From a phage, in assembly GCA_036253055.1 (NCBI GenBank), contig GCA_036253055.1_4124.1: a stretch of 64,000 bases of DNA, one strand, 5' to 3'. The stretch's first letter is position 1; every line of letters begins with the position of its first letter. Below are positions 5,978 through 22,008 of the stretch, piece after piece. The position numbers and the translations under genes are program-made. Below the pieces are notes generated by a model. It was not told where the DNA came from and did not search any database. It saw nothing but the letters and a program-made list of their open reading frames with translations.

Positions 5978-6220
5978 TTACAGTACTTTACTATCAATGG
6001 CAACTACTTTTTTTACTTGAACTGCGTGGAATACTTCACTCGTATTTTTAGTACTGAATACTTTTGCCGTACCTTGTTCGACCGCAATACGATAGCGACC
6101 GTTAACGTCCACCATATTGATAAAGTCCGGTGTACTGAATGGAGTTACCCGGCATTTAAGAACGGTTAACAGTTCCACCAGCGTTGTAGTCTCTTTGATA
6201 CGTTTTTCTAAAGTAATCAT
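5978..6220 (-). CDS. hypothetical protein
   Basis: Track start is promoter TTGACA read as TTG; ATG 6218-6220 used. Confidence 0.45.
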   Translation of the reverse strand: MITLEKRIKETTTLVELLTVLKCRVTPFSTPDFINMVDVNGRYRIAVEQGTAKVFSTKNTSEVFHAVQVKKVVAIDSKVL

Positions 6221-6273
6221 TTTGTTTTCCCCGTGTTGGTATGCATTCATAGTACTAAAACATTTGAGTACTG

Positions 6274-6528
6274 TCAACGTGATATTAGTTTTATTTTTTT
6301 ATTGTATTGTTGGTGTTCATATAGATTAATTTTTCCAGTACTCTCGATCACTATTCTATTGTTAGTGTCTACATCGATAACACGTAGTTTCCCGTTGCTT
6401 AACTTCCTGGGTAATAGACTACCATTAATAAACTCATTAGCAAGCTGTACGGCCTTTGTGATGATTCTCTGTGGGGCTTTATAGTGTACCCGTAATACAT
6501 TATCGTTTGATAGTTGAACCTTAATCAT
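6274..6528 (-). CDS. hypothetical protein
   Basis: 84 aa; ATG 6526-6528. Confidence 0.5.
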   Translation of the reverse strand: MIKVQLSNDNVLRVHYKAPQRIITKAVQLANEFINGSLLPRKLSNGKLRVIDVDTNNRIVIESTGKINLYEHQQYNKKIKLISR

Positions 6529-6590
6529 TTTGTTTATCCTATAAAAAAGGCGGGAACTATTCCCGCCGTGTTGTTAGTACTGCAAAGTTA

Positions 6591-9564: not shown

Positions 9565-9921
9565 CTAGGATAAAATCATTATAGGATATTCACAGTTAAT
9601 CAGTACTTCAAAACCAAAACTTTCATACCATTCTTTAAGATTAAACTCGTTATCTTCTCCCGTATCGCATTCTAAGATGATACAATCTGAATCATCGGCG
9701 GCATCAATAAAGGCATTCATTAATTCAGTACCTTCACCGTTACCGCGATTATCGGGATCAACATAAAGAGAATCAATAAACGCTACACGATCATAATCAA
9801 GATCCGGTGCAACAATGCCACGTTTAACAAACCAGTACTGCAATTGTGCTACTTTGCCTTGTACTTGATAGCCAGTGATCTCACCATTGTCTGTAGTACG
9901 CGTGATATGTTGTATACCCAT
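9565..9921 (-). CDS. GNAT-family N-acetyltransferase-like protein
   Basis: Motif-A-like DNRGNGEGTELMNAFIDAA; 118 aa; SD GAGGA. Confidence 0.5.
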   Translation of the reverse strand: MGIQHITRTTDNGEITGYQVQGKVAQLQYWFVKRGIVAPDLDYDRVAFIDSLYVDPDNRGNGEGTELMNAFIDAADDSDCIILECDTGEDNEFNLKEWYESFGFEVLINCEYPIMILS

Positions 9922-9984
9922 GATTTCAATCCTCAGTTAAGATATAAAATATTATACACTAACTAACAGCACTGTCAATACTTT

Positions 9985-10242
9985 TTATCTCATAGATCTA
10001 TGCCAACAATTACGGGGATTGCGTTTGAATATGCTATCATGATCAGCCTGGCAAGTGATGCAGTACTTACACCCCTTAACGGCCAGGCGGCGATTCTCAG
10101 GGATTTTATCGCCGCAGTCGAGGCAATGTATCAGTGATTCTATTTGTGCGTTAATTTGCGTTCTAGCGTGGTTTACAGCGGCCTGAATCACTGCGTTAAT
10201 CTCGTCTTGCTCGGCCCCGTCATTCGCGAATCCAACAGCCAT
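9985..10242 (-). CDS. TraR/DksA-family C4 zinc-finger protein
   Basis: CLDCGDKIPENRRLAVKGCKYCITCQ fits the TraR/DksA C4 zinc-finger pattern. Confidence 0.6.
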   Translation of the reverse strand: MAVGFANDGAEQDEINAVIQAAVNHARTQINAQIESLIHCLDCGDKIPENRRLAVKGCKYCITCQADHDSIFKRNPRNCWHRSMR

Positions 10243-12028: not shown

Positions 12029-12238
12029 GATTTGTTTCCTTATTACCAGGGGAAACCGTTTCCCCTTTCGATGTAAAACATTATACGCTTATTGAGATAG
12101 TTTGCAAGTACTTTTTAAAAATAGTTTTCAGTACTCAAACATTATATAATAGATACACTTATGCACCCTGTGGGCTAGTGAGCTATCTCTCAATGAATAT
12201 ATAATAGCAAAATGGCTGACCGGAGTCAACCACTTTTT

Positions 12239-15319: not shown

Positions 15320-15350
15320 CAGACACAAAAAAGCCCACTGTTTAAGGTGG
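15320..15350 (-). terminator. rho-independent terminator after gene 15375..15857
   Basis: Minus strand AGCCCACC-loop-GGTGGGCT followed by TTTTTTGTGT. Confidence 0.6.
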
Positions 15351-15374
15351 GCTAGTGATTCAGTACTTTAATTG

Positions 15375-15857
15375 TTATGCTTCAACTTTGCGATGAGCTT
15401 CGATCCATTCCTCGCGAGTCATACCGCTTTCTTTGATAGCGTCCAGTACTACCGCAATGCAGTTACCGCGTACAGGAATCAAATGTTCTTCCCCGTTATC
15501 AAGGACAACAGTAACACGTTCTTGAATCCATTTTTTAGGCTTAGATTCCGGCTTATCTTCACCGTACTTAACCGCCAGGGCTTTATGTGCCATTTCAATA
15601 ACCACTTCCAGATCTAAACCAGACACCGCCGCCTGAATACTTTCTATTGTTGCTTGCAGTTCTGCTTCACGGGCTTTTTTCTGTTCTTCCAGTTCTGCTA
15701 CCTTTTTGGCTTGTAGTTCTTTCGCTTCACTGTAAGCAATGTTAAAATTGTTGCGTACTGCTTTCATGGTATCATTATCCAGGTCAGCCAGCAATTCAGC
15801 AGCAATCACAGTATCGTTAGAAATCAGTGCTTTCAGAAATGATTTTACATTAGCCAT
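15375..15857 (-). CDS. possible H-NS-like nucleoid-associated protein
   Basis: N-terminal coiled coil (ELQAKKVAELEEQKKAREAELQ); C-terminus IPVRGNCIAVVLDAIKESGMTREEWI loosely resembles the H-NS DNA-binding region; start at ATG 15855-15857 (SD GAGGA). Confidence 0.35.
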   Translation of the reverse strand: MANVKSFLKALISNDTVIAAELLADLDNDTMKAVRNNFNIAYSEAKELQAKKVAELEEQKKAREAELQATIESIQAAVSGLDLEVVIEMAHKALAVKYGEDKPESKPKKWIQERVTVVLDNGEEHLIPVRGNCIAVVLDAIKESGMTREEWIEAHRKVEA

Positions 15858-16049
15858 TTTATAAATCCTCAATTAAAGTTTAAGTTAGTTTATCAAAGTT
15901 TGTTTGACGTGTCCAGTTTTTCATTCGACTTACTGGCGGTCTACTTAATGTTCCCCGTCTTGATGTAATACATTCTACGCTTTTCCCTGGTAATGTCAAC
16001 TACTTTTTTAAAACTATTTTCAAAGTATACCAGTACTACGATACTACAA

Positions 16050-16085
16050 AAACAAAAAAGCCCACTGTATAAGTGGGCTAGTGAT
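16050..16085 (-). terminator. rho-independent terminator after gene 16097..16396
   Basis: Minus strand AGCCCAC-loop-GTGGGCT followed by TTTTTTGTTTTTG. Confidence 0.6.
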
Positions 16086-16096
16086 TCAGTACTATA

Positions 16097-16396
16097 TTAT
16101 AAACAATTAATTACGCCAGTGAATGTAACTTTCTCTGTATCCATTACAGTAACCGAACCGCGTTTACTTTTTGCATCGTAATAGATGGTCGTGCTACCCT
16201 GATCATCTTCTTCATGGTACGGGCCATTAGCAAACATTGCAGGGGCCAGTTCCAGGGATTTGGTAACGATCTCAGCCGTTTCCTCGTTAGTCATTGCAAC
16301 AGTGCACTGAATGAATTTTTCTTTCTGTACATCAACGGAAGCGTTAACAGCGAAAGAGGAAACAGATAAAGCCAGGGCGATGATTGCAGTTTTCAT
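16097..16396 (-). CDS. secreted protein (signal peptide)
   Basis: N-terminus MKTAIIALALSVSSFAVNA; SD AAGGA; terminator downstream at 16050-16085. Confidence 0.55.
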   Translation of the reverse strand: MKTAIIALALSVSSFAVNASVDVQKEKFIQCTVAMTNEETAEIVTKSLELAPAMFANGPYHEEDDQGSTTIYYDAKSKRGSVTVMDTEKVTFTGVINCL

Positions 16397-17431: not shown

Positions 17432-17716
17432 TCAATTGTAAGATCCACATCGTTCGCAGTAGTGTTCATCTTCCTCATCTTCTACCACTTGCCCGATGAA
17501 ATGATCTACTTTCGCTTTCAGGTTATTATAATCGTTTTCTACTTCCTGTAAACGTTCCTGGTAGTATTCCAGGGCTTCAACAAATGCAGCTTCCTCTGAT
17601 TTTGCTTGCATCGATAAATTCATCCCGCGTGTTTCATCATATAGCCAAAAACCATCGGTGCATTCAGTTATAGATAACGTGTTAGTCAGTACTTTACTAT
17701 TAATTACTTTGCTCAT
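17432..17716 (-). CDS. hypothetical protein
   Basis: 94 aa; C-terminal CERCGSY; SD GAGGA. Confidence 0.5.
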   Translation of the reverse strand: MSKVINSKVLTNTLSITECTDGFWLYDETRGMNLSMQAKSEEAAFVEALEYYQERLQEVENDYNNLKAKVDHFIGQVVEDEEDEHYCERCGSYN

Positions 17717-18096: not shown

Positions 18097-18708
18097 TTAA
18101 TATTCGATAGATTCTACTACATCGTCGATAACGTTAAATTGATATTCGTTACCCTCAATCAGTCCTACAATGTTTTCAGTAGTAAACTGGTCTTCATAAG
18201 CATTTTCTAAATCACGGTACAGCTTACAAGATAATTCTCGGATAGTATCAGTCAGTAAGTTTTCCAGATCCTCAGCCAATGCAGCCTGTTTTACAGTTAA
18301 ATCAGTGTAGCGAGTATCAACGCAACCGCCTACCGTGTTTTCGTGAGCGTAGCGTGATTGGGAACGTTCTACACTCATTTCCAAATCATCTTCGTTCAAC
18401 AGGTGACGGATGGAACGATATTTCGTTAACGCCTTAACCTTGCGTAAAAACTTCTCAGCGTCAACGTGGTCAGTACTGATTGATGCACCGTCACCTTGCG
18501 ACCAAAAACCACTGTATTGCAATTCAGCTTCATCTATGCCGTATTCTGGCAGTACTGTTTCTTTATAGTATTCCAGTACTGATTCAGCAAAGAAATTATC
18601 CTCACTTGCACGTTCCCGATCCCGAACCAGTTCGATAGCCGCCGCTTGTTGTTCTGCGTTCAGTTCAGAAAAATCCATAACGAAAGTAGTAGTAGTGATA
18701 GTTTTCAT
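18097..18708 (-). CDS. acidic hypothetical protein
   Basis: 203 aa; acidic; SD GAGGG. Confidence 0.5.
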   Translation of the reverse strand: MKTITTTTFVMDFSELNAEQQAAAIELVRDRERASEDNFFAESVLEYYKETVLPEYGIDEAELQYSGFWSQGDGASISTDHVDAEKFLRKVKALTKYRSIRHLLNEDDLEMSVERSQSRYAHENTVGGCVDTRYTDLTVKQAALAEDLENLLTDTIRELSCKLYRDLENAYEDQFTTENIVGLIEGNEYQFNVIDDVVESIEY

Positions 18709-19007
18709 TTTGTAACCCTCATTCAGTAGTTGATGTAAGTATTATACGCTTTTAAAAACAATTGTCAAACTATTTTATCAGGGGAGTTTTTCGTGTGCCT
18801 TACTCCTGGGCTACTTAACGGGAAGTTACTTATTTCGTTCCCCGTCCTGATGTAAAACATTATACGCCTTTAAACATAGTTTGCAAGTACTTTTTGAAAA
18901 TAGTTTTTATCTCTTTCATATAGATACATTCCCGCACCCTATGGGCTATCGCCTTGTGTCCGGCTTGTAAGTATTATCTCACTAAGCCGGATAACGGTCA
19001 AGTACTT

Positions 19008-19274
19008 TTATTCAAGTACTGCAATCTTTTTAGTACTGTACACAGTAACGCGGTTGCCCTTGCGGTCGTGCTTTATTTCTACCACGCGACGCGATACACT
19101 ATCAGGACGCTTTAAAGCAGATAGCCAGTACTGAATTGATCGGGCTGTACTTTGCTTTACTACGGCCCAACGTTTACCACGTTCAGATTGTACGCCCATA
19201 TCTTTAAACGTTGCCCCGTCCTGGCGTGCTGCAATCCGAGCTAGTTCACGCGTCGCAAAATATGTAATAGTCAT
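19008..19274 (-). CDS. hypothetical protein, paralog of 6591..6986
   Basis: Start moved to ATG 19272-19274 (SD AGGGG); shared FATRELARIAAR and HDRKGNRVTVYS motifs. Confidence 0.5.
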   Translation of the reverse strand: MTITYFATRELARIAARQDGATFKDMGVQSERGKRWAVVKQSTARSIQYWLSALKRPDSVSRRVVEIKHDRKGNRVTVYSTKKIAVLE

Positions 19275-21030: not shown

Positions 21031-21701
21031 ACGTCCAAAATCCACCCAGGGTAACTACGCCCAAAATCCGTCAGTACTATACCATAGATCTATCTTTTGA
21101 AAGGGAGTATTCAGTACTGTCATCATAGCCCTCACTATGTTACCCTAGGAGGATGAAGACTATCATGTAGTACTGAATACTGTTAGAGGGAATCCACCAG
21201 CACAAGCTGGTGGCATAATGCTTTAGATTAAAATCAGTACTGACACCATTCTGTTAATATCAGTACTGTTATTACGATTTTCATATGAGGTTCAAAAAGA
21301 TGTACCACCACAGGAGGAACTATCTTTTCTGTACTGTCTCACGACAGGAGGTAGAGTAAATGAATTGTTCGCAGCAACTCATCACCCTATGTAGAACATT
21401 ATACAGTACTGAATCATAATGTCAATAGCTTTCTTTCATTATTCAGTACTGAAATCGTATAATCTGTATCGCTACAAAACTCATTATATCCCACAAATCC
21501 TATATGTCCCAACGTAAATTTCAACTTTCGAAGATCCAACTTTTATTTCATAGGTACTCCAAAATTTTTAGGATCGAGATTTAGGATGGAGTACTAACCA
21601 ACTTTTTGCTGGAGCCTCAAGGGGTAATTGAATTTTACCCCGAAGGGTAAAAGGGTAATTGAAATTAAGGTGAAAGTAATAATTCAGTACTAATCATTGC
21701 G

Positions 21702-21928
21702 TGATTACTTTTGATTACATTTGATGTAATTTGCAAAATGGAAAAGGAGCTTGGAAACTACAAAGTACGGCAGACTTCCTCTGCCTACTTAGTGGCATAT
21801 CAGTACTGCTACGTTCTTGATTAAACGTGAACATTCCTGTACTCTAGTACTCACTACTGATCACTACAGTGATTATAAATGATTACTTAAATGTTTATAT
21901 ATGATTACTTATGACTACCTATGATTAC
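21702..21928. repeat. cluster of TGATTAC direct repeats
   Basis: TGATTAC at about 21702, 21713, 21880, 21902, 21922, plus variant ATGACTAC. Confidence 0.4.
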
Positions 21929-21968
21929 GGGGTTTAGCCTGGGGAGAATCCTAGTGATCGCATTTGTC

Positions 21969-22008
21969 CAGGCTGAATTTTAACATATGCAACATATGTT
22001 AAAGCCTG
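21969..22008. repeat. large imperfect palindrome centred on TTAACATATG-CAA-CATATGTTAA
   Basis: Perfect 10-bp arms 21980-21989 and 21993-22002, flanked by CAGGCT/AGCCTG. Confidence 0.55.

Follow-up and report, generated by a model that had tools for sequence, protein, structure and literature searches.

A probable remote relative of H-NS encoded by an Asteriusvirus jumbo phage

H-NS silences adenine- and thymine-rich (AT-rich) foreign DNA, and a 64,000-nucleotide stretch of phage DNA (contig GCA_036253055.1_4124.1 of GenBank assembly GCA_036253055.1, hereafter the window) raises the question whether a phage encodes an H-NS-like nucleoid protein of its own. The gene concerned lies at 15375–15857 on the minus strand, as do all features of the window given below, and encodes 160 residues. 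An earlier note made from the sequence had suggested such a protein, pointing to a Lys/Glu/Ala-rich helical N-terminal half and to a loose resemblance of the C-terminal 50 residues to the DNA-binding region of H-NS. The source is a 121Q/PBECO4-like jumbo coliphage of the genus Asteriusvirus, and the protein is 98–99% identical to 121Q gp277 and to the PBECO4 and slurp01 counterparts, all annotated as 'hypothetical protein'. The open reading frame (ORF) held up as a real gene under purifying selection, because it has 22 close homologues in a word-seeded search, matches in 51 phage records by tblastn and a ratio of nonsynonymous to synonymous substitution rates (dN/dS) of 0.15 against the orthologue of phage Turkey5, to which the protein is 84% identical. 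Its product is very probably a remote relative of H-NS at the level of the superfamily. The reading that we favour, to which we assign a probability of roughly 45%, is that of a highly diverged, phage-specific protein of the H-NS/MvaT superfamily that acts as an early counter-silencer.

The C-terminal likeness to H-NS went beyond chance. In BLASTP, residues 88–152 aligned with residues 74–134 of Escherichia coli H-NS at an E value of 0.001, and the glycines G122, G131 and G145 were spaced exactly as G104, G113 and G127 of H-NS. Comparison by hhalign of the phage family alignment with an H-NS family alignment (chromosomal proteins and nine plasmid homologues, 34–100% identical to E. coli H-NS) gave a probability of 94.8%, a P value of 5.3e-8 and a score of 52.5, whereas the highest score among 400 column shuffles was 18.6 and a reversed template reached 22.7. 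Across runs the probability ranged from 92 to 95% and the P value from 5e-8 to 5e-7. When match columns were defined by the first sequence, the alignment comprised 115 collinear columns, with residues 26–153 set against H-NS 21–135. The two C-terminal domains compared with each other gave a P value of 1.6e-5, and cross-domain control pairs gave values of 0.05–0.15. A match was still obtained when the family was reduced to its close members (P 2.2e-5), to its distant members (P 5.2e-7) or to the one sequence (P 1.1e-4). The likeness is not wholly new, as the GenBank note on the orthologue of Klebsiella phage Muenster, which is 38% identical over the full length, records an 'HHpred hit to NP_417155.1 97.2%' probability, NP_417155.1 being the H-NS paralogue StpA, and the K64-1 counterpart is annotated as 'DNA-binding protein'. 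A relative from a Klebsiella phage of the Alcyoneusvirus type (P0027) matched the Pfam family Histone_HNS_N (PF22470) at an E value of 2e-4 and 21.5 bits, under the gathering cut-off of 24.5.

The full-length AlphaFold model, with a predicted local distance difference test (pLDDT) score of 75, contains helices at residues 2–12, 16–24, 28–77 and 83–97, strands at 114–118 and 124–128, and two further helices at 135–144 and 148–154, an order of elements that we take to be that of the published H-NS structures. Residues 1–97 (15567–15857) make up a helical N-terminal domain, delimited by the model and by hhalign, that is presumed to be the oligomerisation domain. The Lys/Glu/Ala-rich helical character ascribed to this part was confirmed, with these three residues accounting for 54% of positions 40–80 and the long helix spanning residues 28–77. 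In the alignment a GLDLE turn at residues 80–84 is matched to G69-IDPNE of H-NS, part of the second dimerisation site (site 2). The linker that follows in the model (residues 98–113, YGEDKPESKPKKWIQE; 15519–15566) has pLDDT values below 50 at residues 103–110, and its K109-W110 pair aligns with the invariant K96-Y97 of H-NS. In the C-terminal domain (residues 114–160; 15378–15518) a beta-hairpin, a loop and two helices are predicted, the second of them short, and this part of the model shares its fold with, and comes closest to, the DNA-binding domains of MvaT, Ler and H-NS. In a Foldseek search of 350,542 chains the top rank went to 1HNR, the DNA-binding domain of H-NS, though its E value was 1.0. 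The predicted succession of N-terminal helical domain, flexible linker and C-terminal domain is the architecture of the H-NS-like superfamily (PMC6936261), and together with the statistically supported profile-profile likeness to the H-NS family it argues for placing the protein in that superfamily.

Conservation within the phage family is centred on the loop R130-G131-N132 (15462–15470), which lies between strand 2 and the following helix and aligns without gaps to H-NS Q112-G113-R114, the H-NS loop that enters the DNA minor groove. Besides Met1, G131 and N132 are the sole invariant residues of the family, which is 20–35% identical outside the invariant loop. R114, G122, G145 and R148 are near-invariant, and the position before G131 varies, holding for the most part a polar or basic residue (R, N, T, S, K or H). 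MvaT also lacks a Q/RGR motif; its N100 occupies the structural position of H-NS R114, and DNA binding and silencing depend on it (PMC4466236). By alignment, without superposition of side chains, N132 corresponds to this N100 of the 'AT-pincer', the minor-groove motif of MvaT, and since MvaT N100 recognizes AT-rich minor grooves, an asparagine at the H-NS R114 position is compatible with such recognition. As to the second arm of the pincer, the phage protein has a nearly invariant R114 and places R130 at the H-NS Q112 position; a clear equivalent of MvaT R80 was not established. On balance, DNA binding by the protein appears slightly the better bet.

Several observations weigh against this reading. 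Among the Pfam families matched by the protein at E<=10, neither PF00816 nor PF22470 appeared. Searches of NCBIfam and of PDB sequences, made with the single protein and also with family profiles, yielded no significant H-NS match; the H-NS C-terminal domain 2L93 surfaced in the PDB sequence search only at an E value of 0.99. PF00816 was also absent from the 25 Pfam families most shared by 20 family members (52 families matched in all), and E. coli H-NS, as positive control, scored 57.8 bits with it. Taken on its own, the N-terminal hhalign match was weak (residues 26–88 against H-NS 21–77, P 1.2e-3, probability 19%). Within the C-terminal domain the canonical T-W-[TS]-G-[QR]-G-R-x-P motif is absent, the aligned segment being L-I-P-V-R-G-N-C-I, in which R114, the key minor-groove arginine of H-NS, is replaced by N132 and W109 by isoleucine, with only the equivalent of G113 retained. 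The net charge is −4 for the N-terminal domain, 0 for the linker and −4 for the C-terminal domain, compared with +4 to +8 for H-NS family linkers and +5 for the C-terminal domain of MvaT. A single lysine (K142) occurs in residues 114–154, a segment of net charge −4, leaving the MvaT lysine network (K81, K83, K97, K102, K105 and K108) unmatched. Asymmetric charge and a basic linker have been reported to be conserved features of H-NS, MvaT and Lsr2, with Rok as the neutral-linker exception, and positive linker residues are important for DNA binding and recruitment by H-NS (PMC6936261). Because the basic linker and the charge asymmetry are missing, affinity for DNA may be weak or absent. Acidity is less pronounced in other branches of the family, some distant members having linkers of +2 to +3.

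The profile search proposed in the earlier note thus had a divided outcome, the Pfam, NCBIfam and PDB sequence searches being negative and the profile-profile and fold comparisons positive. The H-NS-like identity stood in the wider sense of a remote superfamily relative and fell in the strict sense of H-NS family membership, since the TWTGQGRTP motif and the basic linker are absent.

The same negative searches bear on the proposal that the likeness is convergent or spurious and that the gene encodes an unrelated helical protein, for instance a scaffolding-like protein or an adaptor. Such an origin would explain why HMM-versus-sequence searches (HMM, hidden Markov model) found no significant H-NS match and why the E value of the Foldseek comparison was so high. 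It would also accommodate weak PHROG matches to head scaffolding families (E 0.0023 and 0.38) and a match of the family profile to residues 252–337 of the defence protein Ec2ApeA (E 0.012, 19 bits), which shows that such marginal matches arise. We rejected the scaffolding identity and regard these matches as helical or compositional, because the gene belongs to an early terminal repeat and to no structural module, and because its actual family, PHROG 27871, has no assigned function. The ApeA match, the best PDB sequence match of the family profile and one that covers the site-2, linker and C-terminal regions, was taken as chance. With the profile-profile score far above its shuffled controls, a spurious likeness is very improbable.

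The charge distribution and the altered loop would fit a protein that is a poison subunit or decoy that acts on host H-NS or StpA by co-oligomerising with it, its poor DNA binding breaking filaments or bridging in a dominant-negative manner. It would then work like H-NST or T7 gp5.5, yet on a full-length H-NS scaffold. The linker and C-terminal domain together carry −4 where H-NS has about +3 to +4, the Q/R-G-R motif is lost, and the phage N-terminal domain is collinear with sites 1 and 2 of H-NS, the G-[IL]-D-x-x-E turn included. The match of the Klebsiella-phage relative to Histone_HNS_N and an early gene position suited to takeover point the same way, and truncated H-NS homologues and T7 5.5 do antagonise H-NS through its oligomerisation domain (PMC6606824, PMC6936261). 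The N-terminal identity to H-NS is nevertheless only ~20%, the H-NS-invariant I11, R15, K32 and E39 have no conserved counterparts, and the long helix differs in length by 30–40 residues between family members, which suits self-assembly better than a fixed host partner. Nor would a degenerate C-terminal domain be expected to retain an invariant G-N pair and near-invariant R114, G122, G145 and R148; linkers and C-terminal domains are more basic in other subfamilies; and one family member comes from a Xanthomonas phage, the host of which may have a different H-NS-type protein. We consider a decoy, the main rival, improbable, at about one chance in several.

An exhaustive HMM search of 1.84 billion representatives gave 20 matches at E<=0.001, with identities down to 20–30%. 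By tblastn the family was found in Asteriusvirus, in Alcyoneusvirus (RaK2, K64-1, Muenster), in the Salmonella phages Munch, 7t3, SE_PL and PHA46, in Escherichia phage EJP2, Pectobacterium phage CBB, Yersinia phages fHe-Yen9-03/04 (gene g001), Cronobacter phage GAP32, Erwinia phages pEa_SNUABM_12/19/49, Serratia phage BF and Xanthomonas phage XaC1. A further search with the family profile recovered additional jumbo-phage members only, none with Pfam domains. In almost all of the more than 50 carrier genomes the annotation reads 'hypothetical protein', and the main text of the phAPEC6 virion-proteome paper does not mention the orthologue gp528. In several records the gene lies 1.4–8 kb from the record start, including those with determined or annotated termini (fEgEco12, vB_Ec-M-J, Muenster and CBB). 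This wide occurrence and terminal position mark it as a core gene, conserved in position, of the RaK2-like jumbo-phage clade. Metagenomic members sit in similar arrays of small genes on contigs of ~350 kb. Two of these relatives carry a gene with a Phage_T4_Y00F domain and one with a ParE-like toxin domain (9580–10071 and 10426–10662 in L014; 9892–10332 and 10684–10920 in L016), within the early array that also holds the H-NS-like gene, 3–4 kb downstream of it.

The position of the gene in the window is in keeping with this pattern. Phage fEgEco12 has a guanine-plus-cytosine (GC) content of 35.8% and a direct terminal repeat of 20,993 bp (PMC13070987), and its copy of the gene lies at 6069–6548. 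Mapping of window positions 18–26 kb onto fEgEco12 placed the repeat boundary at ~21.5 kb. The GC skew changes sign at ~22 kb (about 21,500–22,000) and again at ~40,000, and the first of these flips coincides with the mapped boundary; the window therefore spans the point where the unique right end meets the terminal repeat. By this mapping the direct terminal repeat of ~21 kb contains the gene, ~6 kb from where the genome physically ends. The gene is present twice in records that hold both terminal repeats, and in vB_Ec-M-J and Muenster it falls under an annotated terminal-repeat feature. It is surrounded by small genes of early type that point the same way and lack known domains, in a window whose GC content varies between 0.32 and 0.41 and in which tRNA and Rfam scans found nothing. 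Among the neighbours, the 203-residue product of 18097–18708 is 45% identical to Muenster_006 ('YeeU-like antitoxin') and has no Pfam match at E<=0.01; in both genera this gene and the H-NS-like gene are syntenic, and it is a possible antitoxin-like or anti-defence early gene. A 94-residue ORF at 17432–17716 matched Pfam DUF1033 with 25.5 bits, barely over the gathering score of 25.

The signals around the gene were read from the sequence and from its conservation. The coding sequence runs from an ATG at 15857 to a stop codon at 15375–15377, included in the coordinates given above, and has orthologues in 121Q (gp277), phAPEC6 (gp528c) and Muenster (Muenster_011). The longest mechanical ORF would begin at a TTG at 15872. 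We take the ATG to be the true start because a Shine-Dalgarno sequence GAGGA (15866–15870), kept in Turkey5, lies 8 nt upstream of it and because every homologue starts with the same N-terminal MANVKS. A sigma-70-like promoter, TTGACA-16-TAGAAT, is found at 15999–15972 (15972–16006 together with the preceding A-rich motif AAAGTAGTTGAC), and this block also precedes the orthologues of Turkey5, of Muenster and of a metagenomic contig of 349 kb. AAAGTAGTTGAC, which combines the A-rich element with the −35 hexamer, occurs four times on one strand of the repeat region (5999–6010, 12225–12236, 15995–16006 and 18997–19008), compared with 0.6 expected copies, and is probably a shared early-promoter consensus of the terminal-repeat genes that has been kept across genera. 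Downstream, 22 nt past the stop codon, lies a hairpin like that of an intrinsic terminator, AGCCCACC...GTGGGCT (15332–15353), followed by a T run (15322–15353 in all). A near-identical hairpin with its T run (AGCCCAC...GTGGGCT) is found at 16059–16079, so that two adjacent genes end on the same element; it is kept in Turkey5, and these hairpins appear to be a repeated terminator cassette between small early genes. Directly upstream, a 99-residue ORF (16097–16396) begins like a signal peptide (MKTAIIALALSVSSFAVNA), which would be unusual for an early phage gene, and has no Pfam match.

With a promoter and a terminator-like hairpin of its own, the gene can be regarded as a monocistronic unit. 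In the related phage PA5oct the majority of terminal-repeat genes are early and the infection cycle relies on host RNA polymerase (PMC7318152). From this precedent, the conserved promoter and the terminal-repeat position, it is reasonable to infer early, host-polymerase-dependent, monocistronic expression.

Such a stand-alone unit, with unusually long intergenic flanks (about 230–480 bp) in several genera, would also be expected if the gene were autoregulated, and this brings in a role of the H-NS-fold protein for the phage itself, in organising or compacting its DNA, in repressing promoters to time the early-to-middle switch, or as an RNA chaperone like StpA. No relation to host H-NS would be required. 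The fold and architecture serve this proposal as well as they serve the counter-silencer; a clade-wide, positionally conserved gene fits it better than a sporadic accessory would; and StpA, the top recorded HHpred match of an orthologue, is an RNA chaperone as well. The present evidence fits the counter-silencer just as well, however, the acidic C-terminal domain speaks equally against strong nucleic-acid binding, and repeated operator-like sites were not found. We hold a phage-internal role to be just as possible as the decoy, and so likewise improbable.

Returning to the counter-silencer, the sequence of events would be as follows. Host RNA polymerase would transcribe the gene directly after injection, and the protein would self-associate through its N-terminal domain. 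The R130-G131-N132 loop would contact AT-rich DNA, with the asparagine in the role of MvaT N100 or H-NS R114 and R130 in the place of H-NS Q112. On the phage genome, with its GC content of 36%, the protein would compete with or replace the filaments of host H-NS/StpA, and early phage promoters would stay active through counter-silencing as by Ler or by the plasmid-borne 'stealth' H-NS homologues. An incoming jumbo-phage genome should be a prime target of H-NS, given its GC content of ~36% and the reliance of PA5oct on host RNA polymerase. We put forward the anti-silencing role itself only tentatively, as somewhat less probable than its denial. Extended to the clade, the proposal is that all RaK2-like jumbo phages possess a private, ancient branch of the H-NS superfamily, serving as a dedicated early counter-silencer or as a 'poison' H-NS subunit that shields a 36%-GC genome of 350 kb from xenogeneic silencing by the host in Escherichia, Klebsiella, Salmonella, Yersinia, Erwinia, Pectobacterium, Cronobacter, Serratia and Xanthomonas. 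This branch would be encoded among the first genes at the genome terminus and would join a scaffold of the H-NS type to an Asn loop of the MvaT type and to a linker that is not basic. In this general form the proposal is speculative and rather unlikely to hold. If true, evasion of silencing through molecular mimicry would be a core function of virulent jumbo phages. The protein is a candidate determinant of host takeover by jumbo phages, and its family would serve as a natural experiment for telling the parts of the H-NS scaffold needed for DNA binding from those needed for filament poisoning. Standard domain libraries miss this H-NS-like branch.

Among known systems, H-NS and StpA of Enterobacterales (PF22470 plus PF00816) share with the phage protein the three-part architecture, the order of elements and ~115 collinear profile columns, and in detail the G-[IL]-D-x-x-E turn of site 2, a K-aromatic pair before strand 1, the spacing of the three glycines and an x-x-[FW]-[LI] pattern in the C-terminal helix. 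They differ from it in that identity is ~20%, the Pfam models are blind to the phage protein, TWTGQGRTP is replaced by LIPVRGNCI, strand 1 is ~4 residues longer in the phage protein, and the charge is 0 rather than +4 in the linker and −4 in the C-terminal domain. As for MvaT/MvaU of Pseudomonas (2MXE, 2MXF), G131-N132 of the phage protein aligns with H-NS G113-R114, the structural counterpart of MvaT G99-N100. Relative to H-NS the MvaT loop lacks two residues, while the phage loop is as long as in H-NS, and the phage protein has neither the lysine network that contacts the DNA backbone nor the charge of +5. Sequence kinship with MvaT was not found when the C-terminal profile was compared by hhalign with the MvaT C-terminal domain (P 0.17). 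Ler, the regulator encoded by the locus of enterocyte effacement (LEE) and itself a counter-silencer (2LEV), has an H-NS-type C-terminal domain, as is predicted for the phage protein. Ler is basic and retains the arginine of the G-R loop.

Unlike truncated H-NS antagonists of the H-NST type, which consist of the oligomerisation domain alone, the phage protein has a conserved C-terminal domain that is predicted to fold. T4 Arn is, to our knowledge, also a phage countermeasure and not an H-NS homologue. T7 gp5.5, T4 MotB and LUZ24 Mip resemble the proposed counter-silencer in being early proteins of phages and in interfering with the silencing that the H-NS family imposes on AT-rich phage DNA; according to the papers found they are not H-NS homologues and instead bind H-NS or MvaT, or bind DNA non-specifically (PMC7827196, PMC8501957, PMC6606824). 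In our literature search no paper linked H-NS or StpA to 121Q, PBECO4, RaK2, Asteriusvirus or Alcyoneusvirus. A tblastn search of 50,697 phage records with E. coli H-NS returned no true phage match, the sole matching record (AGRM01000002.1) being a misfiled 691-kb contig of Salmonella enterica subsp. houtenae. Xenogeneic-silencer homologues known to be phage-borne are the canonical H-NS of the metagenomic phage EPV1 (PMC7074111) and the Lsr2-like proteins of actinophages (PMC3097231). The EPV1 protein and the plasmid proteins Sfh, Acr2 and Sfx are, like the phage protein described here, full-length H-NS-type proteins on mobile elements, and such homologues are thought to manage the silencing of the element or of host defences (PMC7074111, PMC6936261). 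They are canonical, however, with 34–68% identity to E. coli H-NS in the H-NS family alignment used here, Q/R-G-R or close variants of it and basic linkers, and the jumbo-phage family is far more diverged from H-NS than any of them.

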